A stretch of DNA of 64,000 bases from an uncultured Holophagaceae bacterium (GTDB lineage Bacteria > Acidobacteriota > Holophagae > Holophagales > Holophagaceae), in the NCBI GenBank assembly GCA_903857495.1, contig CAIOFF010000034.1, positions 13,467 to 77,466 on the forward strand, read 5' to 3'. Below, in pieces: positions 15,886-32,456 of this stretch. The notes below the pieces were generated by a model. That model searched no databases and was not told the DNA's origin. It was given only the letters and a program-made list of their open reading frames with translations. Position 1 is the stretch's first letter, and the number at the start of each line of letters is the position of its first letter. The position numbers were made by a program, and so were the translations under genes.

Positions 15886-15914
15886 TTGACAAGTAGATCC
15901 AAGTTTGTTAATTT
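15886..15914 (+). promoter_or_regulatory. Possible sigma70 promoter of the WD40-phosphatase-kinase operon
   Basis: TTGACA-N17-TAATTT, 43 nt before ATG 15958. Confidence 0.4.
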
Positions 15915-15957
15915 ACGAGAAATATCGCTATTAACACCGACATATTGAGGTGCCGAA

Positions 15958-17079
15958 ATGAGGGCAAAATTCTCGACTGTGGTCATCATGCTGGTCTTTG
16001 CTGTCTCGACGTTTGGCTTTGCTCAAAGTATGAACTGGTACGAGAGGGTCAAGGAGTCCACACCGGTCGATACCCTTGCTATTCATACCAACACCATTCG
16101 GAGCCTGGCATTTTCGTCTGACCGGACCAAACTCCTGACGTGCAGCAACGACATGACCTTAAAGGTCTATGATTTAAGTGCTAAGGCAATAGACAAGACG
16201 CTTAAAATGCAAGACATTAAGCTCTCGCAGCGCCTGTCCCAGGTCTGGGGTGGGAAGGGTGTCAGCGGATATTACAAGGCCATCTTCGGGCCCGATGGGG
16301 CGACGGTCATCTCCGGTTCGCCCGATACCGACGTGATCATCTGGGACCTGCCCAGTCAGGCCGAGCGGCGGAGGCTGAAGGGCCATGAGCAGCCGGTGTC
16401 ACGGCTCGCGCTCACGAAGGATGGCCGGTATCTGGTCAGCCAGTCCGCCAGCGAGGTCATCATCTGGGACGCGAAGACCTGGGTGGAATCCAGGCGAATC
16501 AAGAGTGGTGCCCTGATTACTCGGAACTTCCTGATCAAGGCCACGGATTTGATCATTGATTTCGCGCTCAGCTCCGACCAGTCGAAGCTGTACGCCTTGA
16601 CTGGAAAGGGGCTCATCACGGGGTTCAGCTTTCCGGAGGGCCAGCAAATTTTTCAGTTCCAGCACGATGCCAGGGTAATTGGCTATTCCAACTATGAGTG
16701 CATTGCCGTCTCTCCGGATGGCCGGTTTCTGGCGGATGGCAACGTCCACGGCGGCATCACGGTCTGGGACATTGAGCAGAAGAAGATCATCAAGACTTTC
16801 GGCCATTGGGACTCCCCATCCGGCTACCTGCCCAGCGTCTATGAGATCACCTTCATCAAGGATGGATCGAAGCTGCTGACCGCCTGCGCTGATGGGACCA
16901 GTCGCCTCTGGACGGTGGCGTCCCCGAAGGATGAGGCCGACATCTATTTCGGCCTGCATGGGAATAAGGCAACCGAACAGAAGGGCGTCTTTGCCCTGGG
17001 CGTTAGTCTCGATGGGAAAGTGTTCGCCACGGGTGGGGTGGACGCCACAATTCGGCTCTGGGAAATGCCTTCCGAGTAG
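15958..17079 (+). CDS. Secreted WD40-repeat beta-propeller protein
   Basis: Signal peptide ending FGFA|QS; repeated GH...(S/A)..D..I.(I/L)WD/WE motifs; RBS GAGGT. Confidence 0.88.
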   Translation: MRAKFSTVVIMLVFAVSTFGFAQSMNWYERVKESTPVDTLAIHTNTIRSLAFSSDRTKLLTCSNDMTLKVYDLSAKAIDKTLKMQDIKLSQRLSQVWGGKGVSGYYKAIFGPDGATVISGSPDTDVIIWDLPSQAERRRLKGHEQPVSRLALTKDGRYLVSQSASEVIIWDAKTWVESRRIKSGALITRNFLIKATDLIIDFALSSDQSKLYALTGKGLITGFSFPEGQQIFQFQHDARVIGYSNYECIAVSPDGRFLADGNVHGGITVWDIEQKKIIKTFGHWDSPSGYLPSVYEITFIKDGSKLLTACADGTSRLWTVASPKDEADIYFGLHGNKATEQKGVFALGVSLDGKVFATGGVDATIRLWEMPSE

Positions 17080-17095
17080 GAAGCAAGGCGTGCCG

Positions 17096-18718
17096 ATGAC
17101 CTGTCAACTCGTGATCCAAGGCCTGCCGCCCATCGTTCTTGGGAAGGACTCGGCCCCGGTCACGGTGGGCCGGGGCAACGACAATCGGATCGCAATCGAT
17201 GAGCCGAGCCTTTCCAGACAACATGGCTTCTTCCAGGCCGATGAGCAGGGCTGCTATTACGAGGACTGCCAGTCGCGCAACGGCTCGAAACTGAATGGTC
17301 ATCAGCTCAAGGCCCGCTGTACGCTCCACATCGGCGACGTGCTGGAGTTGGGGCGGATCCACGTGCGGATCGAAGCCGCCGCCCAGCATGTGCTCGAGGC
17401 GGCTTCCGAGCAGCTGTTTCCCTTGGAGCAGGTCCGGAAGTCCTTCTCGGCGCTGGAATCCCATGGCGGGAAGACGCTGGAGGAATCCCTCAACCTGCTT
17501 CAGGATATCTCGCTCGATCTGATCCACGATGCTCCATTGCAGAGCCAGGTAAAACAAATACTGGAGCGTCTGCACCTCATGCTCAAGCCACGTCGGCTGG
17601 TAGCCCTGCTGCGATCAGAGGGGGGCGATTTCCTACCCATAGCCTCTGTCCCTCACTCGAAGGAGGACCTTCCGGTTTCCAGGACTGCGGTCGCTTCCAT
17701 TTGCGAGAGCCGGCAGGCCCTGCTGGTCCAGGATCGGCTCAGCGATGTCCGAGTCCAGCACGCCACTTCTCTGGTCCACCAGTCCATCCGAAGCCTGATG
17801 GCCGCACCACTCGAATGCGAAGGGATGGTTGAGGGCTTGCTGTACGCCGATGCCGGTCTTGCCCGGGAGCCCTTTGGGAAGCGGGAACTGGCGCTGCTCG
17901 CCACCGTCGCCCACATGCTGGCAGCCCGGATCCGAACCCTCAGGCTTCTCGAGCAGCGAGAACAGGCACGGTCCATGGAACGTGAAATGGCCTTGGCCCG
18001 GCTGATCCAGCGGAACCTGCTACCTGAGGCTGACCCGAAGACCCCGAACTTCGAGTTCCTGGGCCGGGCCGTGCCGAGCCGACAGGTGGGTGGCGACCTC
18101 TATGGCTACTGGCAGCCAACGCCGGCGCGATTGTTCGCGGCCATCGCGGATGTGTCCGGCAAGGGCGTGGGACCCGGCTTGCTCATGGCCTGCCTGGTGG
18201 CCTACATGAATGGCTCCACGCGTACGAATCCCGAGACCGCCAGTCTGGCGACCTGGCTGAGCCGGGACTTGGCCGGGCACACCAGTCGGAACCGCTTTGC
18301 AACCGCCTTCCTGCTCCGTCTCGACCCCGAGGCCGACTGGGTCGAGTACACCAACGCTGGCCACAACCCGGGTCTCCTCGTGGATGCTGCGGGGGTCATC
18401 ACCCGCCTGGAATCACAGGGCCTGCCCCTGGCGATGTTTCCAGGTAAGGTCCCCTACGGCCAGAGCCGGATCACCATGCAGCCGGGGGATCTCCTGTTTC
18501 TCTATACCGACGGCATCACGGAAGCGACGAACGCCTTGGATGAAGAGTTTGGAATGGACCGCCTGGAGCAGGCCCTGGTTGCGTTCCGAGAGCAGCCTCT
18601 GGAGGAACTGGTTCGCCGGTTGGATGGCTGCATGGCGTCGTTCTCAGGGGAGGTCCCCTTTGGTGACGACCGCACCTTCCTCATCGTCCGTCGAAGCAGG
18701 ATACCGGCGGGTAGCTAG
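17096..18718 (+). CDS. FHA-GAF-SpoIIE(PP2C) Ser/Thr phosphatase
   Basis: FHA motifs VGR..N, S LSRQH, SRNGS.LNG; GAF region SIRSLMAAPL; PP2C motifs VGGDLY, IADVSGKG, NAGH, LYTDGITEA, GDDRT. Confidence 0.92.
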   Translation: MTCQLVIQGLPPIVLGKDSAPVTVGRGNDNRIAIDEPSLSRQHGFFQADEQGCYYEDCQSRNGSKLNGHQLKARCTLHIGDVLELGRIHVRIEAAAQHVLEAASEQLFPLEQVRKSFSALESHGGKTLEESLNLLQDISLDLIHDAPLQSQVKQILERLHLMLKPRRLVALLRSEGGDFLPIASVPHSKEDLPVSRTAVASICESRQALLVQDRLSDVRVQHATSLVHQSIRSLMAAPLECEGMVEGLLYADAGLAREPFGKRELALLATVAHMLAARIRTLRLLEQREQARSMEREMALARLIQRNLLPEADPKTPNFEFLGRAVPSRQVGGDLYGYWQPTPARLFAAIADVSGKGVGPGLLMACLVAYMNGSTRTNPETASLATWLSRDLAGHTSRNRFATAFLLRLDPEADWVEYTNAGHNPGLLVDAAGVITRLESQGLPLAMFPGKVPYGQSRITMQPGDLLFLYTDGITEATNALDEEFGMDRLEQALVAFREQPLEELVRRLDGCMASFSGEVPFGDDRTFLIVRRSRIPAGS

Positions 18719-18785
18719 GATACCCAAGGGCCAAGTGCGCTCTGGTTGGGTTACACTTGGTTGGAAAAATCCTAGGATCTAGTCC

Positions 18786-21212
18786 ATGCAAGCGGGTCAA
18801 AAAATAGATAAATACCGCCTTCTCTCCCAGATTGGTGTTGGCGGGATGGGGGAGGTCTGGAAAGCCGTCGATGAAGGGATCACCGGACGAGAGGTGGCCA
18901 TCAAGGTGGTCCGCACAGGCGCGACTGCGGGCTACCTGGAGGCGCTGGCCAGCGAGGCGCGAACCCTGGCCAAGACTCCCCACCATCCGAACATGGTCAT
19001 CCTTTACGATGTCATCGAAGCCAACGAAACCTTGGCGCTGGTCATGGAGTTCATCCCCGGGGCCGGGCTCTCCGCGCTGATCAAGGAATACCCCCAGGGG
19101 CTGCCCTGGGAGTTGGCCTACCAGGTCTTCCGGGGGCTCTTTGATGGTGTGGGCCACGCGCACAGGAACCGGGTCATCCACAGGGATCTCAAGCCCGACA
19201 ATGTCCTCATCAATCACTACAAGCCTGGACAGCCTTTCGACCAGAACGACATCAAGATCCTGGATTTTGGCCTGGCCCGGATCGAAAAGGAGTTCGGTAC
19301 CCAGTTCACCCGGAGCGCCGCCGGGACTTTGATCTACATGAGCCCGGAGCAGCTTCGGGAGGAGTCACAGGGCCCCTATACGGATGTCTATGCGCTGGGA
19401 ATCATGCTTTATGAGGCCCTCTTGGGGCACCCCCCCTTCGGCGGGTCGGAGCAGCACAGTTTCAGCGCCCTGATACGTGCCCACTGTGATCTTGTCCCAC
19501 CCGCGCTCAGCCCGAGGAGACGCGGGGTCGAAGGCCCGCTCGAGTCCGCCATCCTGAAGGCGCTCCAGAAGGAACCGGCGTTGCGCTTCCCATCGGCCAT
19601 CGAGATGGGCCAGATCATCCTACCCCTCCTCAAAAGCAACGCGACGAGCCTGCCCCAAACCCCTTCACGCGATCAGCAGACCGTGGACCTGAGCGAGATC
19701 ACAGGTGGAACCGCGCGCATCCCCAGCCTGGGCGAACCAATCCCGTCGACCTCCGATGCGACGGCAACAACCCTCCTCCCGGGGAAGCCGCCGCCACCCG
19801 AAGTCCCTAAAAAGCGCTGGCTCGAAACCAACTCCCTGAAATGGGGGATCGGTGCCCTCCTCGGCGGCGTGCTCCTCACGTCCGGCTTTGTGCTCTCCAG
19901 GGCACCCACGGCTCCTGTGGCGACTGCCGCCAAGGGCCCCCTCTCAGAGGCGCTTCCCGCGGCGCTCAAGAGCAAAGGCGGCGCGCCTGATCAGAAGGAT
20001 CCCCTGACGGGGAAACAGACCCCCCACGAGGAGCCCGCTGTCGCCTCACCGAAGACCGGGAAGCCAGGCCCCTCCGCCCCGGCGGTTTCCAGGGCCCCGG
20101 AGCCGGCCTTGGCCGCTGGAGCGGCGACCACCCCCTTCGAGTTCGGTTCGTACTGTCTGGCGCGGACCCGATTCCTGGAAAAGAAGAGGCGGGTCATCTC
20201 CTGGAGGGCCAAGTTCACCGAGGACCACCCAAGTCCCGAGGAACAGAAGTCCCTGCAGACCACCCTGGCGATTCCTCCGGCCGTCTATGCCCAGAGCAAG
20301 GTCTACCGGGTCTCAGGCAACAACAGCTTCGGTGCGAACAGGAGCACCTTCAAGTCTGTGCTTCTGATCAACGGCCCAGGGTTCATCAAGGCCGTCCTCG
20401 GTCAGGATATCCAACTGGGTGAAAGGCTCAGCACCAGCGAAGGCGTGACGGTTCGCTTCAAGTTCAGGGATTGCGAAGTGATGTTCTGGCCCATCCAGGC
20501 GCCCGGGACCTACCCGAATCACCTGGTGCTGGGCTACCAGAGCGGATCCCTCGTTCATTTTGGCAGGAACAAATCGAGCCTTATCCTTCCCTACAGCCTG
20601 GGAGGCATCCTGGCCCTGGATTACTCGGACCACGAGGCCGTGGGGGTCTTCCGCTTTCCCCTGAACGATGCGGTCATTCCCATGAGGGGCATCCGCCTGG
20701 GCAATGAGATCCTCCTGGAAGCCGACCAGCCGAGGCAGATCTCCCTGACCTACCACCGGAACGACCCCTCCCAGACGGCGGGAGTCGGGGGCATGGAGGC
20801 TCCGGGCCTTCTGCGGATCAAGGTCAAGCTTGGTGAGCCCAGGCAATTGGATGTCAGCTTCATCGCCAAGAGCAATGACCTCATCAGCCTTCCCTTTGAT
20901 CTTCACGGCGAATCCGAGCTCTCCGTGACAGTCTCTGGAACCAGCCTCAAGAATCTGAGCGCCACGCTTCCTGATCTTGGCAAGATCCTGAAGGCATCGG
21001 GGGAGAAGGCTGATCGGGAGGCGGTGGCGCTGCTGTCCCAACTGGATCAGGCCTATGCCAAGGGACGGCTCCAGGTCTATATGTGGCCCGCCAGCACTCA
21101 GCGCCCCGGCGGGGAAGCCAATGCAGCCTGGCGGACTATCCTGTCCAACAGCATCGCCAAGGCCATGAAACTTAAGCTGCCCGTGCAGGAAGCCACGGCG
21201 CCCAAGGACTGA
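18786..21212 (+). CDS. Hanks-type Ser/Thr protein kinase with TM helix and about 450-aa unknown extracytoplasmic domain
   Basis: GVGGMGEVW, VAIK, HRDLKPDN, DFG, YMSPE, DVYALG; Pro-rich linker; TM WGIGALLGGVLLTSGFVL. Confidence 0.93.
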   Translation: MQAGQKIDKYRLLSQIGVGGMGEVWKAVDEGITGREVAIKVVRTGATAGYLEALASEARTLAKTPHHPNMVILYDVIEANETLALVMEFIPGAGLSALIKEYPQGLPWELAYQVFRGLFDGVGHAHRNRVIHRDLKPDNVLINHYKPGQPFDQNDIKILDFGLARIEKEFGTQFTRSAAGTLIYMSPEQLREESQGPYTDVYALGIMLYEALLGHPPFGGSEQHSFSALIRAHCDLVPPALSPRRRGVEGPLESAILKALQKEPALRFPSAIEMGQIILPLLKSNATSLPQTPSRDQQTVDLSEITGGTARIPSLGEPIPSTSDATATTLLPGKPPPPEVPKKRWLETNSLKWGIGALLGGVLLTSGFVLSRAPTAPVATAAKGPLSEALPAALKSKGGAPDQKDPLTGKQTPHEEPAVASPKTGKPGPSAPAVSRAPEPALAAGAATTPFEFGSYCLARTRFLEKKRRVISWRAKFTEDHPSPEEQKSLQTTLAIPPAVYAQSKVYRVSGNNSFGANRSTFKSVLLINGPGFIKAVLGQDIQLGERLSTSEGVTVRFKFRDCEVMFWPIQAPGTYPNHLVLGYQSGSLVHFGRNKSSLILPYSLGGILALDYSDHEAVGVFRFPLNDAVIPMRGIRLGNEILLEADQPRQISLTYHRNDPSQTAGVGGMEAPGLLRIKVKLGEPRQLDVSFIAKSNDLISLPFDLHGESELSVTVSGTSLKNLSATLPDLGKILKASGEKADREAVALLSQLDQAYAKGRLQVYMWPASTQRPGGEANAAWRTILSNSIAKAMKLKLPVQEATAPKD

Positions 21213-21252
21213 AGAGCCCCGGACACGGGTACCGGCGAAGGTCAGGGGGGGA

Positions 21253-22380
21253 CTACCACCAGGCCACCCTGCTGAGGAATGCAGGAGGCTCCTGGCCTCC
21301 GGACTGAAGGACAAAGGCCTGCTCCGCCTCCAGGGGGCGCCCGGCGGGAGCCAGCACGGCCAGGAAGTGGCCTTCCCGGATGCCGTTGGGGTAGTTCCCC
21401 ACTGCGCCGTACATCCCGACCCAGTCCGGGCTCTGTGCGTAGCTGGCCTCGTAAGGAGGGTTCAAGTGGGTGACATCCGGCGCCAGTTTTTTCTTGCCCG
21501 TGCGCCAGCCGAAGGCGGGGGACAGGCCTTCGGCGTCACGCTCCTTCAGGGGGATGAGGTAGATCGCCCGGCCGGTCAACGGTTTGTCGGAGCGGAACCG
21601 CACGGAAAACTCCAGCCCCTTGGGAACATACAACTGGACGACGGGGAAGGCCGGACCGATAAAACTGTCCTGAACATCGAGGAAGGTCTCGGCCTTGTTC
21701 AGGAAGGCGGAAAACCCGGTTGCCTGGGGTTTGGGCTCAGCCTTCTTCAACACGCCCAGTCGGGTGAAGGCTTCGGTCAGGTCCATGCCGTTGTCCACGA
21801 AGTGCGCCGCCCGCTCTGCACGCAGCAGCTTCTGGGGTGTGACCCAGTAGGAGCGCATCTCACCATCCCACTCGCTATAGGTTCTCCTGGAGTCTGCGAG
21901 CACCCTGTCGCCGAGGCGCACCTGGACCCGGACGACGTTGGCGAACAGGGCACCGACGCCGCAGGAATAGCGCAGGCGCAGGGCCTGGCGGTCAACGATC
22001 CGGGCTCTGTCTTCGGCGGTCAGGGTGCCGAGAAGGGCTTGGCCAGAGCTGGTGCTGCCGTCAAAGGCATTGCCCCCCAGGAGCCGCTGGTAGGTGGAGG
22101 CCATGAGGAGCAGTTCCTTCCGCTCCTCATCGTTGAAGCCCAGGGCATAGAGTTCTTCGACCGTCGCCTTGCTTACCGGCAGATCCAGATCCCGCAGGTC
22201 GAGATAGCGGAACAGGAGCGCCTTGTTTCCCTGAAAGCCGGTGTGGAGGCGCTTCAATTCCCCCAGGGAGACTGGGGGGTTGCTCTTCAGCTGGGCTTGG
22301 TCCTGGGCTCTGGCCGGCACCGGGCCACCGAGCAGCAGGGACAGGAGCAGGGGCTTCAGGAAGGCGGAGGGGAGTCTCAT
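21253..22380 (-). CDS. Secreted hypothetical protein
   Basis: Signal peptide ending ARA|QD; 8 nt from upstream gene; no recognised family. Confidence 0.75.
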   Translation of the reverse strand: MRLPSAFLKPLLLSLLLGGPVPARAQDQAQLKSNPPVSLGELKRLHTGFQGNKALLFRYLDLRDLDLPVSKATVEELYALGFNDEERKELLLMASTYQRLLGGNAFDGSTSSGQALLGTLTAEDRARIVDRQALRLRYSCGVGALFANVVRVQVRLGDRVLADSRRTYSEWDGEMRSYWVTPQKLLRAERAAHFVDNGMDLTEAFTRLGVLKKAEPKPQATGFSAFLNKAETFLDVQDSFIGPAFPVVQLYVPKGLEFSVRFRSDKPLTGRAIYLIPLKERDAEGLSPAFGWRTGKKKLAPDVTHLNPPYEASYAQSPDWVGMYGAVGNYPNGIREGHFLAVLAPAGRPLEAEQAFVLQSGGQEPPAFLSRVAWW

Positions 22381-22388
22381 GCTGGGCC

Positions 22389-24251
22389 TCAGTTGCTGGC
22401 TGGCAGTGGGGTGGCGGCTGGTTTGGGAACCAGCTTCTCGATGACCTTGATGTCCTTGCTCACACCCGCCCAGAACGAGATGGTGATGTCTTCATAAACA
22501 AAGGTCTGGTTGAGGCCTCCCCAGGAGGATTCCTTCTGGGAGGGCGCCCCGAGCAGGCTCAGCACGGCGGCCAGCCCCATACCGGGCTTGATTCTGGCCA
22601 CAGCCCTGACGCGGGCTGCGACCACGGCCTCGGCGGCCTCGCGTTCCTCTCGGGCCGCTAGGTCGATGACGCCCTGCTCGGCTGTTTCCGTTTCCTGAAC
22701 CGCCTTTGTGAGCTCCTCTGCGGCCTCGGCGCCCGAAGGGGCGTCACCGAGGTAGGGGGCGTTCTCGATGCCGCGAACCTTGGCGGGTGGCACTGGGAAG
22801 GGGTCCTTCTCCTTGGGCCTGCCCTTCGGAGCGGGCTTGGCGGCCTCCTCGCCTTGGCTCTGGAGCTGGTCCAGGCCCTGGTCGAAGGTGATCACCATCT
22901 GGTTATGAAACTCTTGAAGCTGGTCCAATCTCACCGAGATGGTGCTCCCCTGGGGGCAGCCTGCATTCTGGTGCGCCACGAGCACTTTGACTTCCACATA
23001 TTCATCAGCCGGGTTGGGTGGGGAGGTCAGCAGCTGGAGGACGGAGCCCGCACCCACGGAGCACTCCTGGTTCTCAGAGGAGTCCATCAGCCCCTCGGAC
23101 ACCAGGAAGACCTTGGGTCCCTTTTCCGTGAACAGCGGAGGCATGGCCGATTCAGCCTCGATTCCCTTCGCATTCGCCTGCTCGGCCTGCCGCTCCTCCA
23201 TCATCCTGCGGACCTCGGCGGCGATGTATTCTTTCACTTCCGGGGTCATCGCGGGGGCGGCGCTGGGTGGTGGCGTAACCGGGGGGGCCTGGGTGTAGCC
23301 GGGCGCGGCCTCATTGGCCTCACGTGCCAGGTAGGCAGATTCAAGGCTGGCCGCGATCATGAAGTCTGTGAGCCAGAACATGGGACTGGCATAGGTGGGG
23401 TAGGGAGAGAAGTAGCCGCCGTAGTAGCCGTACCAGGACCGCCCCTCCCAGCCCCAGGCGTAGGGATAGGAATGGCGATAGGGTGAGTATGCCCAGGCAT
23501 AGAAGGCCGGCCGGTAGTAGTGGTTGTGTGCATAGACGTGATACTGCCGACCGCCGTGAGTCCAGGGGCGGTAGGCTCGGCTGTAGGTCATGCCGCCGCG
23601 GACGTAGGTCCGGCTGACGAACTTCTTGCCGTGAGATTCGAAGGGTCTCTGGATGTAACCCTGACGGCCGTTCCCGTGCGCCACGATGACGCGGCCGTCA
23701 GGCCGCTTGACCTCCGTCTGCCGGACCCCTCCGGGGGTGTGCCGAACAACAGCGCCGTTGGGCGTGCGAACCTCAAGCAACTTTCCACCCGGATCGCGGC
23801 GGACTTCCGCTCCGGATTTTGTCACCTGAAGCTGATGGTCGGGACCTCTCCCGCTGCTCTTGACCATGACCCTGGTCCCCGGCGGGGGAGGGGCGATTAC
23901 ACCAGGGTTCCGGTTGCTCACCCGGGATCCCGAGGGAGTGCCTGGTCTCGGAGTGTCGGTTCGACCCGTTAGTTCCTCGGCAGGGCGCTTGCCCCGCCCT
24001 GGCTGGTTGGGCTGGCCTATCCTATCGGTCCGCGTCGCCCCCCCCGCTTCGGGCTTGGCAGGGCCTTTGCCCTCTGCTTTGGGGGCAGGCTCCGCTTTCT
24101 TCGCCTTGCCCTTCTCTTTGTCTTTGTCCTTGTCCTTGTCGGAAGCCGCCGAAAGACTCGCCATTGAGGTCAGCAAGAGTGCAATCGCAATCCTTTCCAA
24201 CCCTTTGTGGATGTGGTGGGAGACCCTTCGGATGCACTTGCTTCTTTTCAT
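22389..24251 (-). CDS. Secreted hypothetical protein (disordered N-terminus, beta-hairpin repeats, Tyr/Trp-rich segment, C-terminal SmpA/BamE-like module)
   Basis: ATG 24251 after GGGAGA; signal peptide; C-terminal IKPGM.LAAVLSLLGAPS...TFVY pattern. Confidence 0.75.
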   Translation of the reverse strand: MKRSKCIRRVSHHIHKGLERIAIALLLTSMASLSAASDKDKDKDKEKGKAKKAEPAPKAEGKGPAKPEAGGATRTDRIGQPNQPGRGKRPAEELTGRTDTPRPGTPSGSRVSNRNPGVIAPPPPGTRVMVKSSGRGPDHQLQVTKSGAEVRRDPGGKLLEVRTPNGAVVRHTPGGVRQTEVKRPDGRVIVAHGNGRQGYIQRPFESHGKKFVSRTYVRGGMTYSRAYRPWTHGGRQYHVYAHNHYYRPAFYAWAYSPYRHSYPYAWGWEGRSWYGYYGGYFSPYPTYASPMFWLTDFMIAASLESAYLAREANEAAPGYTQAPPVTPPPSAAPAMTPEVKEYIAAEVRRMMEERQAEQANAKGIEAESAMPPLFTEKGPKVFLVSEGLMDSSENQECSVGAGSVLQLLTSPPNPADEYVEVKVLVAHQNAGCPQGSTISVRLDQLQEFHNQMVITFDQGLDQLQSQGEEAAKPAPKGRPKEKDPFPVPPAKVRGIENAPYLGDAPSGAEAAEELTKAVQETETAEQGVIDLAAREEREAAEAVVAARVRAVARIKPGMGLAAVLSLLGAPSQKESSWGGLNQTFVYEDITISFWAGVSKDIKVIEKLVPKPAATPLPASN

Positions 24252-24362
24252 GTATCTCCCCACAGAATCAGGTAGGCTCCAGCCGTCAATCATTCCCTTA
24301 TTTCTAGATGTGCAATAAGGAAAAATCGATAAATTGTTAACCATAAACGCAAACTGACCAAA

Positions 24363-24407: not shown

Positions 24408-24673
24408 ACCTGATCCGAGGCCAGGTGTCGGGCCCGAAGTGGGTGACTCAGAGGTTCTTCAGAACCTTGAGACCTTCGCCTTCTTCTAGATTCTGTTGAA
24501 GGGCTTCGACTCCTTGTTCCAACGCACGGGGGTCCCCGGGAAGCGCGAGCAGGTCTGGATGTTCGCTGAACCCCATGCCTTTCCCTTGCCCCCCGGCGGG
24601 TGATGATCTGGCGCAGGTACTCTGTGCCGCCACGCCTGACTACGGTGCCGCGCGAAGCGAGGCTCCTCTCGCT

Positions 24674-25228
24674 GGGCCGGGATTCGAACGCACCCGGCTG
24701 CGCCGTGTGCCGGTCTCGCTACGGCGCCACATCAAGTGGCGCCTTCACGATCCTCCGCCTGACGCAGGCTCCCCCGGAGCCTGCTCCCGCGCGCCTCAGC
24801 GCGCGGAGTCGGAGCCTCCTCGGAGGTTCGAATCCTCTCGGACGTGCTCCGTAGCTGGTGCCGACACACCAGGGCGGGATTCGAACTGCGCCTGGCTGCG
24901 CCAGTCGCCGGTCTCGCTACGGGGCGACAGAGGCTCCGACTCCGCGAGTGAGCAAAGCGAAGAGCGGGAGGACAGCGCGGGGCGCTGTCCGTTAGTTGGA
25001 GGGTGGCGCCTTCACGATCCTCCGTCTGACGCAGGCTCCCCCGCGCCTCAGTGCGCGGAGTCGGAGCCTCCTCGGAGGTTCGAATCCTCTCGGCTGTGCC
25101 CCGTATTTGGCGTCGACTCACCAGGGCGGGATTCGAACTGCGCCTGGCTTTGCCAGTCGCCGGTCTCGCTTCGGCGTGCCATCAAGGCACGCCTCGGGCG
25201 ATCCCATTCGGAGGTTCGAATCCTCTCG
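24674..25228. repeat. Array of alternating tRNA-arm-like palindromic repeats containing two about 175-185 bp direct repeats
   Basis: Direct repeats 24736-24922 and 25003-25173; TCGGAGGTTCGAATCCTCTCG at 24820, 25072, 25208; GGATTCGAAC modules at 24680, 24877, 25129. Confidence 0.9.
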
Positions 25229-25250
25229 GCCCGAAGGGTCGAAGCACCCG

Positions 25251-25279
25251 AAAAAGGGACCCGGATGGGTCCCGTTTTC
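25251..25279 (-). terminator. Rho-independent terminator of tRNA-Pro (possibly bidirectional)
   Basis: GGGACCC-ggat-GGGTCCC stem with A5 on the left (U5 on minus) and GTTTT on the right. Confidence 0.8.
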
Positions 25280-25287
25280 TGGTGATT

Positions 25288-25364
<77 letters not shown>

Positions 25365-25374
25365 TGAATCATTG

Positions 25375-25403
25375 ACTCTAGTCCTGGTGGGCGCTGGGGT
25401 CAA
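25375..25403 (-). promoter_or_regulatory. sigma70 promoter of tRNA-Pro
   Basis: TTGACC-N17-TAGAGT, 10 nt upstream of the mature 5' end. Confidence 0.7.
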
Positions 25404-25757
25404 GGAGTGATGCGGCGGGAGGACCTCAGCACTGACGGTCGGCCGAGAGAAACTCTGCAGCGGGGTTGGCCTGCGGCGCAGCTGGGCCCGACAGAAGACA
25501 CCGCAGGCAACTCGGCGACACCCGAGGAAAGAGGCGGCCTTCCTGGCGGAAGGAATGTCCCGCTTCAGGCCGACCGGCACACAGAACCGGCCCGGCGATC
25601 GCAATCCACCTCTTGGTAGGCTGAGGCCGTTAATCAAATTATTAATATCGGATTATCCCAATTTGCATCACCGGGATGGTTGGTTCTTAGGGCAACATGG
25701 CCTCACTGAATTTTTCGGTCCCTGCCGTTCCCTCCGCACCTATTGGATGAGGTTTCC

Positions 25758-28700
25758 ATGGGCTCTTCGCGCCGTGTCATCTCCCTCTTCGCCACCCTGG
25801 TGATCGCTGCGCCGCTGATCCCCCAGGTCCCGCCTCAAGTGCTCCAGGCCCTCAAGCCCGTGGTCACCAAGCTGGGGGAGGCCCTCCTCAAGCCGAAGAT
25901 GCAGGTGGAGAGCTTTACCTTGGGGGGCTTCAGCGCCACCCGAGTGGAGCCTGACGGGGATGCCACGCCGGAGAAGTTCAGCGGCAGCGCCCTCTTCGCC
26001 CTGCCTCTGCCTCTGGGACCTCAGAAGCTCGAGTTCAAGAACCTCGTCCTGAAGGGGGCGGTCGCGGAGGGCAGCCTGGATGCGGCCCTCAAGGACTTCT
26101 CGGCCGCGCACCAGGGCTGGACCTACCACCTCACCAAGGTCGCGCTCTCGGACAAGGGCAGCCGGGTGGAAGGCCAGGCCACGCTCGCCGGCCTGAAGCT
26201 GGACGTCGGACCGCTCACCCTCGGCGCCAGCGGACTGCAAGGCACCTTGCCCCCGGCGGACCTCCCCCTGGCGGAGGGCGCCTTCACCGCGGTCCTCGTC
26301 GCCGGAGAGGCGACCTTCTCGGGTCAGGGCGTGAGCCTCAAGGGCAACCTGGAGGTGGTCATCGAGGCGCCCGTGCAGAACGGTGCCACCGGCGAGGAAC
26401 CCAAGTTTGACGGCGGCCCGGTCACCTTCGACAGCGCGCTGCTGGCGGGCACGGGCCAGGTGGCCCCCAGCCTCGCCAGTGGCCTGTCTCTGCTCCACAA
26501 GGGGCTGACCTGGCAGGTCCAGAAGCTGGCCTTTGGCTTTGAGCGGGGAACCCCGCAGCTGACCGGCCCCACCCAGCTCCAGTTTCCCCTGCAGGTCTTC
26601 TGCCGCGTGGGCGCGACGGATCAGCCCTACCTGTCTGAGACCATGACGGGCAGCATCCGGGGCCGCGCCCCGGCCCCGGCCGCGCCGGCGCCAGCGGGAT
26701 CGAAAGCCTTCGCGGTCCGGAAGACCACTCCGACCATCACTATCGCCAAGGCGAACCTCGGGTGGGAAGGCTTCAGCGCCAGCTTCACCCTGCCGGCCGC
26801 CAGCCTCCATCCCTCCGGTCTCACGGCCTATCGCCTGGAGCTGGCGAGCGGCATGGCCCGGGTGGAGAAGGGCGTGGTGGACGAAGCCAACACGCGCCTC
26901 ACGGGCAGCCTCGCCTGGGGGCCCAGCTTCACGTTCCGGACCTCATTCAAGGATGCTGCGGCGGCCCTCTCCCACGGCCTCTACGTGACTGGTTCCCCGC
27001 TCAAGCTCCCCGCCGAGGTGGGCGCCTACCGGGTCTACACGGCCTTCACGACGTTGGTCTGCGACTTCTCCTCGACCCACTCCCCCGAGGGTCTGCCCGA
27101 AGCCTGGATGGGCGTCTACCTGCCCACCTTCCACCTCTCCCTGCCCATCGAGCTCTACACCTTCAACAGCGCCAACGAGCGGTTGCCCGTGCTGGCGAGC
27201 GGCAAGGCCGGTCGCTTCGAAGGGAACGGCGCCTTCAGCGGCTCCGTCGGAGTGAACCTCACGAAGCTCGTCAACCTGCACATCACGCCCGTCCGGCTGG
27301 AACCCTTCGACCTCCACTTCATGGAGGGGGCCCTGCTGAACGGGCCCCAAGTAAAGGGCCAGATGGAGCTCACGGCCAAGCCCTTGCTGGTGGACTTCAA
27401 GGCGCCCATCTCCTTCCACCTGACCCAGAACGGGGCGGAGCAGATCGAGATCACGACCAACACGCCCAGCGGTCCCATGGCGGTGAAGACCCGGCTGGTC
27501 GGCATCGACATGGTGATGGACGCGGCCCGGCTGCATCCCACGAACATGGACTTCACCGGCCGCTTCGACTTCGACATCGCGGGCGCGGCGCTCCCCTCCA
27601 TCGCCTTTGACCACCTGGTGATGGAAGCCAGTGGCGGCGGCATCGAGGGCAGCCACGAGGACCTCTCCCTGGACTTCAAGGGGTCGCGCTGGTCTAGCTC
27701 GGCGGACCGCCCGCACGTGAACCTCTGGGGCTTCCCCCTGGCCCTTGGCGAGAGCGGCTACGGTGTGCAGGCTGATGGACGCTTCTACGTGGGCCTGGGC
27801 GGCGACATGGAGATCAATCCGATCCTGCCCTCGCTCTACAACCGCCTGCTCTTCACCACGGAGAAGGAGGACGAGGGCAAGGGCATCGTGGAGCTGGAGC
27901 ACCCCTACACCGTGGACCAGAGCGTGGCCTCCATGGGTTCCTTCAACGCCAGCCTCGGCTTCCAGGTGGATTCCGCCGATGACAAGGTGAGCGACGCCTA
28001 CTTCCTCGGCAAGGGTGACCTCAAGGTGAACCTCGGCGACACGCCCTTCGGGCTGAAGGCCGGCCTGCGCTTCGGGCGCAGCTACCTGGGCACGACCTCC
28101 TTCCCGTACTTCTACGCCCTGGGCCATTTCGAGGCGCCCGAGGGCGGCCTGCCCGTGGCGCCCAACCTCGAGGTCTACGGCCTCGTGGGCGGGCTCGCCC
28201 AGAACTTCCTCCCGGATGAGATCCGCAACACCACCGAGATCAAGGGCACCCCTGATCAGTCCCTCGGGATGGCCATCATGGCCGGCGTGGACGCAGGCAC
28301 CTCCGACAAGTCCACCTTCCACGGTGGGCTGGACCTCTACATCAGTCAGAACCTCACGACCATCCTGCAGGGCAAGGGCTGGCTCTTCTGCGGGCGCGAC
28401 AAGGAGCCCGCCGACAACCAGGTGACCGCGGACCTCCGCTTCACGCGCAAGCCCGACACCTTTGACGCCACCTTTACCGCGAACCTGAACCTCTACCAGG
28501 GCCTCATCCGTCCCTCGGGCGAGATCCAGCTCCACTTCGGCCCCGACAAGCAGTTCGTCCACATCGGCACCCGCGAGACACCCATCACGGCGCGCTTCCT
28601 GAATGCCTACGATGGCTCGGGCTACATGACTGCCGACTTTGAGGGCGGCGGTGCTGCCTTCGGGGCGGGCGTGGCCCTGAGCTATCGCAAGGAAGGCGAC

Positions 28701-29000
28701 TTCGGAATCATCTGGGGGAACGCCTATCTCAATGCGCGGGGCGATCTGATCATCGAGATCGACGCCGACAAGAACCCGCACCTGCTGGGCACCATCTCCG
28801 CCGAGGGCGGCGCCTCCTTCGGCATGCGGTTCGAGACCTTCTGGCACACCTACAAGATCACGATCTTCAGCGGCAGCATCGCCACCAACCTGGCCTTCCA
28901 GATCCCGGGGAGCCCGACGCTTTCGGGCGCCGTCTCCATCCACTACAGCGTGCTCGGCGGTGCCTTCAGCGGCTCTGTCAGCGCCCACCTGGACCTCTAG
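25758..29000 (+). CDS. Large secreted beta-rich protein of unknown function (about 1080 aa)
   Basis: Signal peptide ...AAPLIP|QV; Gly/Phe/Leu-rich alternating beta pattern throughout; host-like codon usage; ATG 25758 after GAGG. Confidence 0.85.
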   Translation: MGSSRRVISLFATLVIAAPLIPQVPPQVLQALKPVVTKLGEALLKPKMQVESFTLGGFSATRVEPDGDATPEKFSGSALFALPLPLGPQKLEFKNLVLKGAVAEGSLDAALKDFSAAHQGWTYHLTKVALSDKGSRVEGQATLAGLKLDVGPLTLGASGLQGTLPPADLPLAEGAFTAVLVAGEATFSGQGVSLKGNLEVVIEAPVQNGATGEEPKFDGGPVTFDSALLAGTGQVAPSLASGLSLLHKGLTWQVQKLAFGFERGTPQLTGPTQLQFPLQVFCRVGATDQPYLSETMTGSIRGRAPAPAAPAPAGSKAFAVRKTTPTITIAKANLGWEGFSASFTLPAASLHPSGLTAYRLELASGMARVEKGVVDEANTRLTGSLAWGPSFTFRTSFKDAAAALSHGLYVTGSPLKLPAEVGAYRVYTAFTTLVCDFSSTHSPEGLPEAWMGVYLPTFHLSLPIELYTFNSANERLPVLASGKAGRFEGNGAFSGSVGVNLTKLVNLHITPVRLEPFDLHFMEGALLNGPQVKGQMELTAKPLLVDFKAPISFHLTQNGAEQIEITTNTPSGPMAVKTRLVGIDMVMDAARLHPTNMDFTGRFDFDIAGAALPSIAFDHLVMEASGGGIEGSHEDLSLDFKGSRWSSSADRPHVNLWGFPLALGESGYGVQADGRFYVGLGGDMEINPILPSLYNRLLFTTEKEDEGKGIVELEHPYTVDQSVASMGSFNASLGFQVDSADDKVSDAYFLGKGDLKVNLGDTPFGLKAGLRFGRSYLGTTSFPYFYALGHFEAPEGGLPVAPNLEVYGLVGGLAQNFLPDEIRNTTEIKGTPDQSLGMAIMAGVDAGTSDKSTFHGGLDLYISQNLTTILQGKGWLFCGRDKEPADNQVTADLRFTRKPDTFDATFTANLNLYQGLIRPSGEIQLHFGPDKQFVHIGTRETPITARFLNAYDGSGYMTADFEGGGAAFGAGVALSYRKEGDFGIIWGNAYLNARGDLIIEIDADKNPHLLGTISAEGGASFGMRFETFWHTYKITIFSGSIATNLAFQIPGSPTLSGAVSIHYSVLGGAFSGSVSAHLDL

Positions 29001-29009
29001 GGAGCCGCC

Positions 29010-32000
29010 ATGATCCTGCACCGGACCCTCACCCCCCTCGCCCTGTTCCTCCTGGCCGCGCCGCTGCATCCGCAGGTGAAGACCGTCAACCAGACTGCCG
29101 CCCCGGCCCTGACGGCGCAGCCCATGCTGCAGCCCCGGGTGGCCCTGCGCGCCAACCTGCTGCCCGTGGGCAAGACCCAGGGCACCTTCCACCTCACCGG
29201 CCTTGTCCGCAAGGACCGCACTGTCATCCTCCGCTGGGCCAACGACCAGGGCGAGATGCCCACCGAGGGCATCCGCGTGTTCCGCCAGAAGGTCGGTGAC
29301 ACGACCTGGAAGGACCTCACCGGCTCGAAGCCTCTGGGCTTCCTCCAGGGCAAGGCCGCCGAGAAGCGCCTGAAGGCCATGCCCTCTGAGGAGCGGGAGC
29401 GGCTGCTGGCCTATCCCTTCGGCAATGTGCAGCACGATCCCGTCACCAAGCTCCGCGTGCTGGAGCTGCCCCGGCCAGACTCCGCCAAGTCCAGGGACCT
29501 GGCCCCCGCGAGGGCCAAGGATCTCTCCCCCGAGGCCTCGCTCAAGCAGTTCCGGGAGCTGCGCGCCACTGGCCGGCTCAACCGGACCGACCTCCAGCTG
29601 ATGCACGTCCGTGCCGACATGGACCAGGGCATGGCCGAGGTGCTGGGGCTCAGCTATACCGACGACCCCGGCAAGGGGCGCTGGAGCTACAAGATCATCA
29701 TCGCCCTGCCCGAGGGCGGCTCTGTGGAGGTGGTCTCCCCCAAGGTTTACAACACCCTGGAGCCCACCCCCATTCCCCAGCCCCTCAGCCTGTCCGCGGC
29801 GAGTGGCAACGGCGAGGTCCTGCTGAACTGGGACGAGACGCCCTCTGACGCCGTGGCCGGCTACAACGTCTACCGCGCGGAGAGCCCCGGCGGTCCGTGG
29901 CAGCGCCTGAACACCGACCCCGTCAAGAAGGTGGAGCTGGAGCTGGAGGACCCCGAAGTCACCCTGCGCCGGTCCATCGGCATCCAGGCTTCCATGGAGC
30001 GCATGCTGAAGCCCCTCCCCGCGGCGGCACGCACGCCCCAGAAGGTGACGGAGGCCCATCGTCAGGCCCTGGATCGGATCGATCAGCCTGGGGGCCTGCC
30101 GGCCCTGAGCGTGGGCACCTCCAAGTCCATCAAGGACGCCGTATCCGCCGGTCGCCTGCGGCCCGGGGGGCGCCAGGCGCCAAAGGCCATCTTCACTGAC
30201 AGTCGGCACACCGAGGGCAACCTGTTAGTGGATGAGAAGACCTATCACTACAAGGTCACGGCCGTGGATCTGGGCGGCCTCGAACAACCCATGGACACCG
30301 CACCCGTCGTGGCAGGGATTCCGAAGGACCTCGAGCCACCCCTCGTGCCCGGCCGCCCCATGCTCAAGGCCGAAGTCTCGGCACGCACCGACCTGCGCAC
30401 GGCCCAGGCGACCCGGGTCAAGGACACGCGCCTTGTGGCGCTGGATCAGGCCGTCGCCGTCAAGCGCCCCCAGGCCGTTGCACCCATGACCCCCTTCCAG
30501 TTGCAGGCCACCCAGGCCCCCGCTGCGGCCGCTTTTACGCCAAGCGGCCTCTCCCTGGGGGAGGCCAAGGGCATGCAGCTGTCCCGCCTGGCCGCCACCA
30601 TGCCGGTGTCGGCGCTCAAGAAGCTGGGGGAGGCCGCTGTCCTCCACTCCAACTCGGACGGGACCGTTCCACCCGCCAACCTGGCCTGGAGCCCGTCACC
30701 CGACGCCGATCTCAGGGGCTATGAGGTCTACCGCGCCACGGGCACGGGCCCCTTCGCCAAGGTGGCCGACACGATCGCGGCGGAGTGGACGGACACCAGC
30801 CTCGAAGCCGGTGTGGCCTACCGCTATGCGATCTGCTCCGTGGACAAGCTTGGGAACGTGAGCGCCAAGTCCCCGGAAGGGAAGCTCGAGGTGAGCGACA
30901 GCAGCCTGCCGGGCCGCCTCGCCATCGCGCAGCTCACGGGCAAGGTCACCAAGGAGGCTCCCGCGACCCTCGCGTCCCGCAGCTTCCTCCGCCCGGCGGA
31001 CCGGGTGATGGCCAGCGGCAGCCTGCGCGCTGCCAAGGCCCCGATCCAGCTGTCCCGAGCGACCGAGTCCACCGTGACGGACTTCCACGCCACCAAGACT
31101 GTCTCGCCCCTCAAGGCCAAGCCCCAGTTCCAAGCCGCCCCCACCACCAAGGCGACCCTGGCCAAGGAAGTGACGGCGGCGCCCGCCCTGGACCTCTCGG
31201 GGCTCAAGGCCTCCACCTTCATCAAGCCGGCCTTCCGAAGCGTGCCCCGCAGCTTCAACGCCATGCTGGGCACCCTGGTCGCGCCCAAGGAGATCCACGT
31301 CCTGCTGGAGTGGGCCAAGCCCATCCAGGGGCTTCCCGTGGAGTATGTCCTTCAGCAGGCGCCCCAGCGCATGGAAGCGGTGTCGAGCCCGCGACCCACG
31401 GTGGCTTTCCAGCCCGGAATCCAGGGCTTCGGAGCCCTGCGCACGCCGGTCGCCACGGGCGCGCTGGCTCCCGTGGCCGCTCCCTCCGGACCGAGCGCCA
31501 GGCCCAATCTGGCGCCAGTCGCAGCGGCGCCCTCCGCAGGGCTGGTGCTGGCCACTCCGGCCCACCACGCCCTCGCGGCGAAGGGGCTGGTGGCCTCTCA
31601 TGGCGCGGGCCTGAAACTCTCGGAGCTGCGCCGGGATCACCTGACTCTGCTGGTGCTGAAGGACGGGCCGGGCACCTTCACGCGGGTGAACGAGACCCCC
31701 ATCGCCACCGAGCGCTACCTCGTGACCTTCCCCGCGGAAGTGGCTCAGTATGGCGGCGCCACCGTCTACTTCCGGATCCAGACCTTCACCAAGGAGTTCG
31801 GCCGCACTGTGGAAGGCCCCCTCAGCGCTCCCATCGAAGTGCGCCTGCCCGATATCGTCGCGCCACCCAGCCCCACCGTGGGTGCGGTGGACCTCCAGGA
31901 AGGCGCCGGAGCCAGCCTGGACGTGGCCCTCAGCTGGACCCAGGCTCCGGCCCGGGATCTGGTCGGTGTGGTGGTGGACCGCCAGCCCATGTCCTACACC

Positions 32001-32456
32001 CTCGTGGACGGCGAGGCCAAGGCGGGCAGCGCCAGCGGCCCGGCGGAGCGGCTCACGCCCACCCCCGTCACCGGCCTCAGCTACCGGGACCCGAAGGCCC
32101 CTACGGGCTTCCAGCGGTACACCCTGCGGGCCGTGGATGGCACCGGCAATCTCAGCGAGGCCCTCGGCGTCATGGATGTGCTGATTCCCGGCGAGCCCAT
32201 CCCCGAGGCCCCCACCCAGCTCGTCCTCGTGGGCAATCGGCTGGCGTGGAAGGCCGCCCCCGGCGCCGCCGGCTACACCATCTGGCGCTCCTTCTCGGGC
32301 CAGGAGGAAGACTACACCTGCATCAGTGGCATCCTTGCGGCCACCGAGAGCAGCTTCATACTCCCTGCGGAGGGCAAGCTCCACCTGCGCGTCGTGGCCC
32401 GCAGCAGCACCGGGATGAACACCACCCCCAGCCAGACCCTGCTGCGGACGCCCTGA
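29010..32456 (+). CDS. Secreted fibronectin type III repeat protein (1148 aa)
   Basis: Signal peptide ...AAPLHP|QV; about 5 FN3-like units (LxW...GYxVYR...Y.Y.V.AVD..G..S). Confidence 0.85.
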   Translation: MILHRTLTPLALFLLAAPLHPQVKTVNQTAAPALTAQPMLQPRVALRANLLPVGKTQGTFHLTGLVRKDRTVILRWANDQGEMPTEGIRVFRQKVGDTTWKDLTGSKPLGFLQGKAAEKRLKAMPSEERERLLAYPFGNVQHDPVTKLRVLELPRPDSAKSRDLAPARAKDLSPEASLKQFRELRATGRLNRTDLQLMHVRADMDQGMAEVLGLSYTDDPGKGRWSYKIIIALPEGGSVEVVSPKVYNTLEPTPIPQPLSLSAASGNGEVLLNWDETPSDAVAGYNVYRAESPGGPWQRLNTDPVKKVELELEDPEVTLRRSIGIQASMERMLKPLPAAARTPQKVTEAHRQALDRIDQPGGLPALSVGTSKSIKDAVSAGRLRPGGRQAPKAIFTDSRHTEGNLLVDEKTYHYKVTAVDLGGLEQPMDTAPVVAGIPKDLEPPLVPGRPMLKAEVSARTDLRTAQATRVKDTRLVALDQAVAVKRPQAVAPMTPFQLQATQAPAAAAFTPSGLSLGEAKGMQLSRLAATMPVSALKKLGEAAVLHSNSDGTVPPANLAWSPSPDADLRGYEVYRATGTGPFAKVADTIAAEWTDTSLEAGVAYRYAICSVDKLGNVSAKSPEGKLEVSDSSLPGRLAIAQLTGKVTKEAPATLASRSFLRPADRVMASGSLRAAKAPIQLSRATESTVTDFHATKTVSPLKAKPQFQAAPTTKATLAKEVTAAPALDLSGLKASTFIKPAFRSVPRSFNAMLGTLVAPKEIHVLLEWAKPIQGLPVEYVLQQAPQRMEAVSSPRPTVAFQPGIQGFGALRTPVATGALAPVAAPSGPSARPNLAPVAAAPSAGLVLATPAHHALAAKGLVASHGAGLKLSELRRDHLTLLVLKDGPGTFTRVNETPIATERYLVTFPAEVAQYGGATVYFRIQTFTKEFGRTVEGPLSAPIEVRLPDIVAPPSPTVGAVDLQEGAGASLDVALSWTQAPARDLVGVVVDRQPMSYTLVDGEAKAGSASGPAERLTPTPVTGLSYRDPKAPTGFQRYTLRAVDGTGNLSEALGVMDVLIPGEPIPEAPTQLVLVGNRLAWKAAPGAAGYTIWRSFSGQEEDYTCISGILAATESSFILPAEGKLHLRVVARSSTGMNTTPSQTLLRTP

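Follow-up and report, generated by a model that had tools for sequence, protein, structure and literature searches.

Tandem tRNA-anchored modules downstream of a tRNA-Pro(GGG) gene in an uncultured Holophagaceae bacterium

What are the repeated, tRNA-like motifs that follow the tRNA-Pro(GGG) gene of an uncultured Holophagaceae bacterium? The locus lies in a stretch of 64,000 nucleotides (nt), referred to here as the window (assembly GCA_903857495.1, contig CAIOFF010000034.1, positions 13,467 to 77,466), in which about 600 nt of non-coding, hairpin-rich DNA separates the tRNA gene from a minus-strand gene of 651 amino acids (aa) at 22389-24344. The original prediction, made from the letters of the window, described this interval as two alternating motifs that mimic the tRNA elbow: an inverted copy of the T-arm of the tRNA (type II) and a D-arm joined directly to a T-loop (type I). 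The best reading at present, held with rather less than even confidence, is that of a tandem array of three Holophagaceae-specific modules, each anchored at the 3' end of a tRNA gene, that would act in cis as 3'-trailer RNA via read-through. It ranks only narrowly above a reading as recombination modules, and the two are not mutually exclusive.

Modules anchored at tRNA 3' ends

The repeats described in the original prediction are present and lie far above chance. The 21-nt inverted T-arm copy, TCGGAGGTTCGAATCCTCTCG, has exact plus-strand matches at 24820, 25072 and 25208 and one minus-strand match within the tRNA gene (25297-25317), which makes 4 occurrences against 0.01 expected. A second sequence, GTTCGAATCC, is found 7 times in the 64 kb against 0.10 expected, always inside 24680-25311, and its three copies on the tRNA strand coincide with the type I coordinates. 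The direct repeats spaced 252 bp apart are likewise confirmed (147 nt, 24783-24929 and 25035-25181, at 89% identity), as are the extra hairpins CGCGGAGTCGGAGCCTC / GAGGCTCCGACTCCGCG. Their arrangement is a different matter: types II and I are not separate alternating motifs but the 5' and 3' ends of one module, paired with each other as a helix, P1. In the source lake metagenomes, exactly matching contig pieces have depths of roughly 125-210x over the array and 174-208x over its flanks (run X1), and because these depths are similar the array is not an assembly artefact.

On the tRNA-sense strand, which is the minus strand of the window and the strand on which module coordinates are read, each module consists of an inverted T-arm copy (invT), GAG, the 5' strand of helix P2, hairpin H1, the 3' strand of P2, hairpin H2, a direct T-loop copy, and hairpin H3 with a tail. 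The invT spans tRNA position 47 to about 67, and sometimes extends to 76. The P2 strands read UGGGAUCGY (5') and RCGAGACCG (3'), while H1 comes in three unrelated sequence types, with an insertion of about 90 nt in some copies. H2 has the consensus GGCGRCYGGC-NNN-GCCRGRYGC and is followed by the T-loop copy GUUCGAAUCC. The host gene, its signals and the modules (U1 to U3, with matches to the family covariance model R1) are located as follows.

25375..25403, minus strand: putative sigma-70-like tRNA promoter, TTGACC-17-TAGAGT, the sole promoter-like site of the region
25288..25364, minus strand: tRNA-Pro(GGG), the host tRNA gene (ARAGORN; Rfam tRNA, 60.8 bits)
25256..25273, both strands: bidirectional intrinsic-terminator hairpin GGGACCC-GGAT-GGGTCCC, between the tRNA and U1
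25095..25238, minus strand: module U1, nearest the tRNA and best preserved (R1 match 25086-25238, 143 bits, E 3e-42)
25208..25228, minus strand: U1 invT, inverted copy of tRNA positions 47-67 (type II copy 3), 5' strand of P1
25198..25206, minus strand: U1 P2 5' strand, UGGGAUCGC
25173..25193, minus strand: U1 H1, variable hairpin GGCGUGCC-UUGAU-GGCACGCC
25161..25169, minus strand: U1 P2 3' strand, GCGAGACCG, pairing with 25198-25206 around a tandem G.A
25140..25160, minus strand: U1 H2, hairpin GGCGACUGGC-AAA-GCCAGGCGC (5' part of type I; resembles tRNA-Pro positions 1-27)
25129..25138, minus strand: U1 direct T-loop copy GUUCGAAUCC (3' part of type I), 3' strand of P1
25108..25123, minus strand: U1 H3, weakly conserved hairpin UGGUG-AGUCGA-CGCCA (63% of cells paired), then the tail AAAUACGGGG
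24843..25094, minus strand: module U2 (R1 match 24834-24971, 73.6 bits)
25072..25092 and 24877..24886, minus strand: invT and T-loop copy of U2
24628..24842, minus strand: module U3, furthest from the tRNA (R1 match 24628-24782, 69.3 bits)
24820..24840 and 24680..24689, minus strand: invT and T-loop copy of U3

The sense-strand minimum free energy (MFE) structure of U1 is a three-way junction plus H3 (-66.5 kcal/mol, z -4.6). U2 and U3 are rearranged by insertions and have R1 scores about half that of U1: U2 carries insertions after invT and inside H1, and U3 carries one after invT together with a short H1 hairpin, GGCGCCAC-UUGAU-GUGGCGCC. All that the window modules retain of the 3' segment of the tRNA is the 10-nt T-loop copy.

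The modules belong to a wider family. A pattern built from their shared part (CGAGACCGGC, 15-25 nt, GTTCGAATCC) was scanned against 185,579 species genomes and matched 102 loci, of which 33 are true members and the rest chance matches in coding DNA. All 33 come from Geothrix, Holophaga, Holophagaceae or unclassified Acidobacteria, including six cultured Geothrix species, and a metagenome scan added 9 contigs. The wider search for homologues that the original prediction had proposed thus returned a tRNA-adjacent family. Related loci compared with the window array carry labels such as L003, L075 or L106. Nearly always, the module lies 30-150 nt downstream of a tRNA gene and in the same orientation. 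A same-strand tRNA-Pro lies upstream in 26 of 32 loci (10 GGG, 12 CGG and 4 TGG), with tRNA-Arg(TCT) (L075, L267) and tRNA-Asp(GTC) (L256) as rarer hosts. The number of units per array ranges from 1 to 4 or more. Their period is 114-137 nt among the pattern matches, and abutting modules recur every 114-252 nt, free of open reading frames (ORFs). In L003, for instance, a tRNA-Pro(GGG) identical to that of the window is followed by one unit.

Two modules from the same metagenome-assembled genome (JACPUT01) have no tRNA gene immediately upstream: L017 5085-5242 and L068 1231-1389. The L017 module follows a terminator about 100 nt upstream of a tRNA-Arg(TCT), and its invT matches no tRNA in the stretch examined. 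These two may be relics or exceptions to tRNA attachment.

The flanks of the module follow the host. Whichever tRNA lies upstream, invT is the reverse complement of its T-arm and the boundary always falls at tRNA position 47. Accordingly, invT mirrors the T-stem of the standard tRNA-Pro (GGAGG/CCUCU), of the L075 tRNA-Pro(TGG) (GCGAG/CUCGC), of tRNA-Arg (GCUGG/CCAGC) and of tRNA-Asp. The T-loop copy is also host-specific, reading GUUCGAAUCC, GUUCGAGUCC or GUUCGAGCCC, and both flanks fit each of the five host tRNA types. H2 remains unchanged in the tRNA-Arg and tRNA-Asp modules, while the flanks change. The T-loop decamer is nearly invariant in the family, although the search pattern itself demanded it. 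The H1 types (a, b and c) form a mosaic across loci and genera.

Genes next to the arrays are core genes. The CGG loci are ordered dciA-like, tRNA-Pro(CGG), module and cutA/glpX, and the GGG loci merR, tRNA-Pro(GGG) and modules, with a tetR-family gene among the other neighbours. Neither an integrase nor a transposase was found in the window between 13.8 and 32.5 kb or in 10 neighbour genes tested at 7 related loci.

The original prediction likened the array to repetitive extragenic palindromic (REP) sequences and bacterial interspersed mosaic elements (BIMEs). A dispersed palindromic family of this kind, mobilised by a REP-associated tyrosine transposase (RAYT, a Y1 transposase), would likewise be repeated, hairpin-rich and intergenic, with motifs of alternating orientation. 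However, this explanation is very remote. Across the 64 kb of the window and some 370 kb of related loci, every significant R1 match lies next to a tRNA gene, in agreement with the motif searches, and the units are multi-helix elements of 114-250 nt. No RAYT or Y1 transposase domain was detected in the array-flanking genes of the window or in the 10 neighbours at 7 loci, a search that did not take in whole genomes. The modules share with miniature inverted-repeat transposable elements (MITEs) and REP/BIMEs a short, non-coding, repeated and hairpin-rich make-up with inverted terminal segments. Unlike either, they are not dispersed, sit strictly at tRNA 3' ends and have no cognate transposase among the neighbours tested. 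Furthermore, in contrast to MITEs, the module ends copy the target tRNA itself, and the duplication comprises 21-24 nt of the tRNA.

By Rfam 15 and to our knowledge, the module is undescribed. No matching family was found in Rfam 15 for three loci, at either the gathering threshold or E<=10, and no description was found in the published literature. Carriage by phages or plasmids was considered and rejected: in IMG/VR, a core-specific pattern gave 0 matches and a looser one gave 119 chance matches with no true member.

Fold, strand and constraint

Do the modules fold, and on which strand? Structure was scored on an alignment of 34 sequences against slid partners and shuffles. In the proposed structure 80.5% of cells are paired, compared with 30-41% when partners are slid, and 0 shuffles reach 80.5%. 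H2 is 95% paired and has 3 covarying pairs. P2 initially seemed invariant because the search pattern fixed one of its strands; once diverged copies were added through R1, compensatory changes appeared, such as GAUCG/CGAGA to ACUGC/GCAGG in L091 and UCG/CGA to UUG/CAA in tRNA-Arg modules. The covariation that the original prediction had called for is therefore present in both helices. P1 forms between the T-loop copy and the loop-complement of invT (GGAUUCGAAC), both in RNAalifold on the model-based alignment and in single-unit MFE structures. Together, P1, P2-H1 and H2 make up a predicted three-way junction in which P2 is closed by a tandem G.A and capped by the variable H1. A kink-turn reading of this tandem G.A was rejected for want of a 3-nt bulge. 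Pairing CGGCGAC with the 3' flank in the manner of an acceptor stem was also discarded, as inspection by eye showed no consistent covariation.

The direction of the changes distinguishes the two strands. P2 and H2 together contain 59 G.U against 10 A.C pairs, a near-invariant U.G ends P2, and all one-sided changes in P1 produce G.U. Where invT departs from complementarity to tRNA positions 47-61, the departures are 14 of G.U type and 3 transversions, with 0 of A.C type. The sense strand also folds better than the antisense strand (-65.3 against -60.7; z -4.6 against -3.3). This combination of G.U-type bias and better folding shows that the tRNA-sense strand is the folded form, be it as RNA or as single-stranded DNA (ssDNA).

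This fold leaves little room for the elbow mimic, in which a D-arm fused to a T-loop would be a substrate of RNase P or RNase Z, or would act as a decoy for nucleases that target tRNAs or for proteins that bind the elbow. The sequence likeness behind that idea stands. When aligned with tRNA-Pro positions 1-27, the H2 segment agrees at 19 of 24 positions in window copy 3 and at 15 of 17 in a Geothrix campi copy, a score that 2 of 2000 shuffles attained, and GUUCGAAUCC follows directly. Descent of the H2 and T-loop region from tRNA-Pro is therefore plausible on sequence grounds, and the nearly invariant decamer, although required by the pattern, also favours a mimic. The D-arm or cloverleaf fold itself fails: D-arm pairs are broken in 9 and 21 of the 34 sequences, no better than in shuffles, and the segment is instead a plain covarying hairpin (H2, with a variable loop of GCA, AAA or GTA) in which the equivalents of G18 and G19 are paired. 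Furthermore, the T-loop copy lacks a T-stem and is engaged in P1 with invT, and H2 does not track the host D-arm in tRNA-Arg and tRNA-Asp modules. ARAGORN detected only the real tRNA, and Rfam 15 at E<=10 returned only weak opposite-strand tRNA-Sec matches (22.6 and 15.3 bits against a 47-bit threshold). Searches of Rfam with three loci gave nothing relevant for YrlA (a bacterial Y RNA), the tRNA-like domain of tmRNA or T-boxes, which were dropped as candidates. An elbow mimic is thus distinctly improbable. The original prediction is partly supported: the family is real, attached to tRNA genes and built partly from tRNA parts (an inverted T-arm, a direct T-loop and a segment like tRNA-Pro 1-27), but the fold and the REP/BIME analogy were wrong.

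Is the core maintained by selection or merely left over? Between G. campi and G. fermentans, identity is 92% in the module, 83% in the terminator spacer and 78% at third codon positions of glpX, and so the core is under constraint. The changes within the module concentrate in loops, H3 and the tail. At four CGG loci (L024, L077, L082 and L088), the part of invT that should be complementary to the acceptor 3' strand has decayed to an A-rich stretch in the spacer immediately 5' of invT (for example UGGAUGAAACGAAAAAAUGAUUCGAACC), mostly by G-to-A changes. At the same loci, the 15 nt that complement the T-loop and the 5' strand of the T-stem are intact, and the constraint therefore ends at the T-arm.

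These observations bear on another explanation, in which the modules are functionless duplication debris: a palindrome would have extended from the terminator hairpin, and tRNA genes would have promoted unequal crossing-over in their vicinity. In its favour, the terminator hairpin at 25256-25273 is the centre of a larger palindrome (inverted repeat I1) formed by the tRNA 3' half and invT, U2 and U3 are rearranged, and H3 and the tail diverge freely. Nevertheless, the core is conserved across genera and shows compensatory changes, its boundary at tRNA position 47 is fixed, it is more conserved than synonymous sites, and the G.U bias is directional. Debris is consequently an improbable account of the family.

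Read-through RNA or inserted DNA

What the modules do we infer from sequence comparison, and in the preferred reading the fold would act as RNA. RNA polymerase from the tRNA promoter would read through the tRNA terminator, or run on where none exists, and so produce module RNA. In this view the module would belong to the 3' trailer and act in cis, most plausibly by binding a protein or directing processing. Its invT could pair alternatively with the T-arm and 3' half of the tRNA itself or with the T-loop copy of the module, and this choice could affect how read-through tRNA precursors are resolved.

Several features are consistent with this reading. The only promoter-like site is that of the tRNA, on the same strand as the module, and at three loci no terminator separates the tRNA from the module. 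Module contigs are present at low depth in three metatranscriptomes, which hold no strand information. H1 varies in length like the arms of many structured RNAs, and this was counted in favour of RNA. Small RNAs (sRNAs) derived from terminator read-through downstream of stable-RNA operons are known (PMC8144298). The E. coli RrA/B/F sRNAs resemble the modules in following a stable-RNA gene and its terminator directly, on the same strand and without a promoter of their own, and L003 and L106 show the corresponding layout of tRNA, terminator, module and terminator. The modules differ from these sRNAs in having a second terminator in only 2 of 31 arrays, in being tandem and in holding copies of the upstream T-arm.

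The promoter-like site was also seen in other loci. TTGACC-17 nt-TAGAGT is identical in the window (25375-25403, minus strand), L003 (5435-5463), L061 (7056-7084) and L106 (2607-2635). This site of tRNA-Pro(GGG) is thus kept in four loci although the neighbouring protein diverges by about 30%.

Other observations weigh against read-through RNA. The palindromic layout with a terminator between the tRNA and the first module recurs in about 24 of 30 related loci, and the hairpin there is strong (-21 to -45 kcal/mol). A sense-strand terminator-like site follows the array in just 2 of 31 cases, so no discrete RNA gene is defined; an sRNA gene with dual terminators was accordingly rejected as the general layout. 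The RNA depth of modules is 2-15, compared with tens to thousands for the tRNA. Of the 8 RNA runs, 5 have no module contigs, and DNA carry-over may account for the signal in the others. A search for RNA-seq from pure cultures of Geothrix gave no data set. Folded ssDNA would equally yield inverted-repeat covariation and G.T bias. Finally, DNA recombination is a simpler explanation of the host-matched flanks and exact 3'-end repeats than an RNA function is.

If read-through RNA is the right reading, the modules would constitute a class of structured RNA not described before, linked to the tRNA genes of widespread, little-studied iron reducers of soil and freshwater. They would also bear on how tRNA precursors and terminator read-through are handled.

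How did the arrays form? Younger arrays are informative here. The three 180-nt modules of L075 each end in the exact 24-nt 3' end of the tRNA-Arg, and the last module of L091 ends in the exact 3' end of its tRNA-Pro. In L106, two identical 175-nt modules separate tRNA-Pro(GGG) from the terminator that is ancestral at this site (T1). Both comprise a terminator of their own, invT, the core and CGAATCCUCUCGCGCCGACCA, and terminate in an exact CGAATCCTCTCGCGCCGACCA. In the orthologous loci L078, L006 and L061 of three Geothrix genomes, the tRNA is followed directly by T1 with nothing between them, as expected of an empty site. The exact 3'-end copies and the filled and empty sites therefore indicate that modules are added by recombination within the segment from T-loop to CCA. 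On this sequence evidence, the newest module is the one next to the tRNA, and arrays grow and shrink by recombination in the copies of the T-loop and 3' end. Related lake populations carry fewer units than the window array.

These junctions support a second reading, more doubtful than read-through RNA but a serious one: a non-autonomous insertion module, comparable to a miniature cis-mobilisable element (CIME) or a MITE, that targets the T-loop-to-CCA segment of tRNA genes and accretes in tandem. The tRNA would stay intact because the module brings along a copy of the tRNA 3' end and, in many cases, a terminator. The core would be a recombination site, either folded ssDNA or inverted protein-binding sites, for a recombinase encoded elsewhere. 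Besides the filled L106 against the empty L078, L006 and L061 and the exact 3' ends in L075 (three times) and L091, this reading draws support from the match of both flanks to five host tRNA types, the differing unit number among lake populations, the mosaic spread of H1 types over loci and genera, and the inverted terminal segments that flank the core. Against it, no integrase or transposase lies beside any tested array, where the neighbours are core genes (dciA-like, merR, cutA and glpX), and no copies were found in IMG/VR. Elements of 114-175 bp would also be very small for excision as circles, and at syntenic loci the core changes at a lower rate than synonymous sites do. In addition, T-loop microhomology with unequal exchange, or homology-facilitated illegitimate recombination, could give the same junctions without a dedicated enzyme.

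Known elements at tRNA genes provide partial parallels. Integration at a tRNA gene splits the target, the island sequence restores the gene, and the displaced fragment marks the end of the island (PMC4383910; PMC9897764). In L106, L075 and L091, similar to tyrosine-integrase islands and CIMEs, modules are bounded by direct repeats running from the T-loop to CCA, the tRNA is regenerated, and insertions stack. Unlike islands and CIMEs, the modules are gene-less and only 114-250 bp long, have no integrase nearby in the loci tested, and carry an inverted T-arm copy and a conserved multi-helix core; in older modules the 3' flank is derived yet conserved. The suggestion in the original prediction that the motifs are spare att-like cores for integrases is therefore borne out to some extent: inserts have the regenerated tRNA on one side and a direct repeat of the tRNA 3' segment on the other, and young modules end in exact tRNA 3' ends, but neither a tyrosine integrase nor another recombinase was found in or next to the inserts tested, and a recombinase may act in trans.

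Integron attC sites, the CALIN arrays (clusters of attC sites lacking integron-integrases) and the attP of CTX phage are arrayed, strand-specific folded elements of about 60-140 nt in which structure is conserved more than sequence. The modules resemble attC and CTX attP in being arrayed, in folding on one strand, in conserving structure more than sequence, and in having a fold closed by complementary ends (...AAC / GTT...) with an apical part of variable length. As read from the sequence, however, the module heptamers UUCGAAC / GUUCGAA fit the attC consensus RYYYAAC / GTTRRRY at only 5 of 7 positions each. Unlike attC and CALIN elements, the module is a three-way junction rather than a single hairpin, has no cassette ORFs, has a tRNA gene as its upstream anchor, and lacks an intI gene in the loci examined.

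Another parallel is found in E. coli, where 178-bp tandem repeats lie directly downstream of the tyrT tRNA gene, each with the 3'-terminal segment of the tRNA. The modules are likewise tandem repeats after a tRNA gene that contain its 3' segment. Unlike the tyrT repeats, which are confined to a single locus and for which we know of no conserved covarying fold or inverted T-arm copy, they form a family over several tRNA genes and genera.

A more specific form of insertion is also conceivable, although unlikely. A gene-less element riding on tRNA genes might use its one-strand fold to direct a trans-encoded recombinase to the T-loop, which would amount to retargetable, structure- or RNA-guided insertion. 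Equally speculative is the accompanying idea that the T-arm-complementary flank changes with the target like a guide, and that insertion rebuilds the tRNA 3' end with a new terminator. If the modules do act as DNA, they would be minimal insertion modules of 114-250 bp that retarget by copying the T-arm and repair the gene they enter, and would be relevant to mobile-element biology and to tools for site-specific insertion.

Surroundings of the window array

Across the array runs a 236-aa ORF (24575-25285, plus strand), which was rejected as coding, given its flat GC content over the three codon positions (GC1/GC2/GC3) and the lack of a Pfam match. An ORF of 43 codons (MGFSEHPDLLALPGDPRALEQGVEALQQNLEEGEGLKVLKNL) lies at 24445-24576 on the minus strand, with the last module on one side and the AT-rich region where the 651-aa gene starts on the other; a purine-rich GGGCAAGGGAAAGGC precedes it, as judged by eye only.

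The far end of the array adjoins a stretch of lower GC content (13700-24344, 0.52-0.64, against about 0.68-0.72 elsewhere). Its genes encode small membrane proteins, a WD40 protein, an FHA-GAF-PP2C (SpoIIE) phosphatase and an 808-aa Ser/Thr kinase. The 375-aa and 651-aa proteins of this stretch had no match in Pfam, NCBIfam or PADLOC. The array was also considered as the edge of an integrase island spanning 13.7-24.3 kb. This was rejected: no integrase was found, the window contains no second tRNA 3'-end copy, and the stretch is therefore not a classical tRNA-bounded island.

The array has practical consequences for assembly. Contigs L001 (1-120) and L002, from relatives of 96% identity, stop at or just before the tRNA-Pro terminator, and the source runs assemble the array only as pieces of 78-236 nt. 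Evidently, the presence of both inverted and direct copies of the T-arm causes short-read assemblies to break off at tRNA-Pro loci, as in L001 and L002, and the arrays could be misannotated as tRNA fragments.

On the other side of the tRNA gene, two large adjacent genes occupy 25743-32456 on the plus strand (1085 and 1148 aa, GC3 0.90-0.91). A search of both proteins against Pfam gave no domain besides a faint fn3 signal. Synteny through the 651-aa neighbour gave nothing, as this protein was not on record. Relatives found through the 1085-aa neighbour are not syntenic on the side that faces the tRNA, except for L003 (72% identity for this protein) with its one module. The 1085-aa protein has 34 full-length homologues at 47-96% identity, apparently in Holophagaceae only, and assigns the organism to this family of the Acidobacteriota. 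The gene pair is adjacent in 5 of 5 relatives examined.

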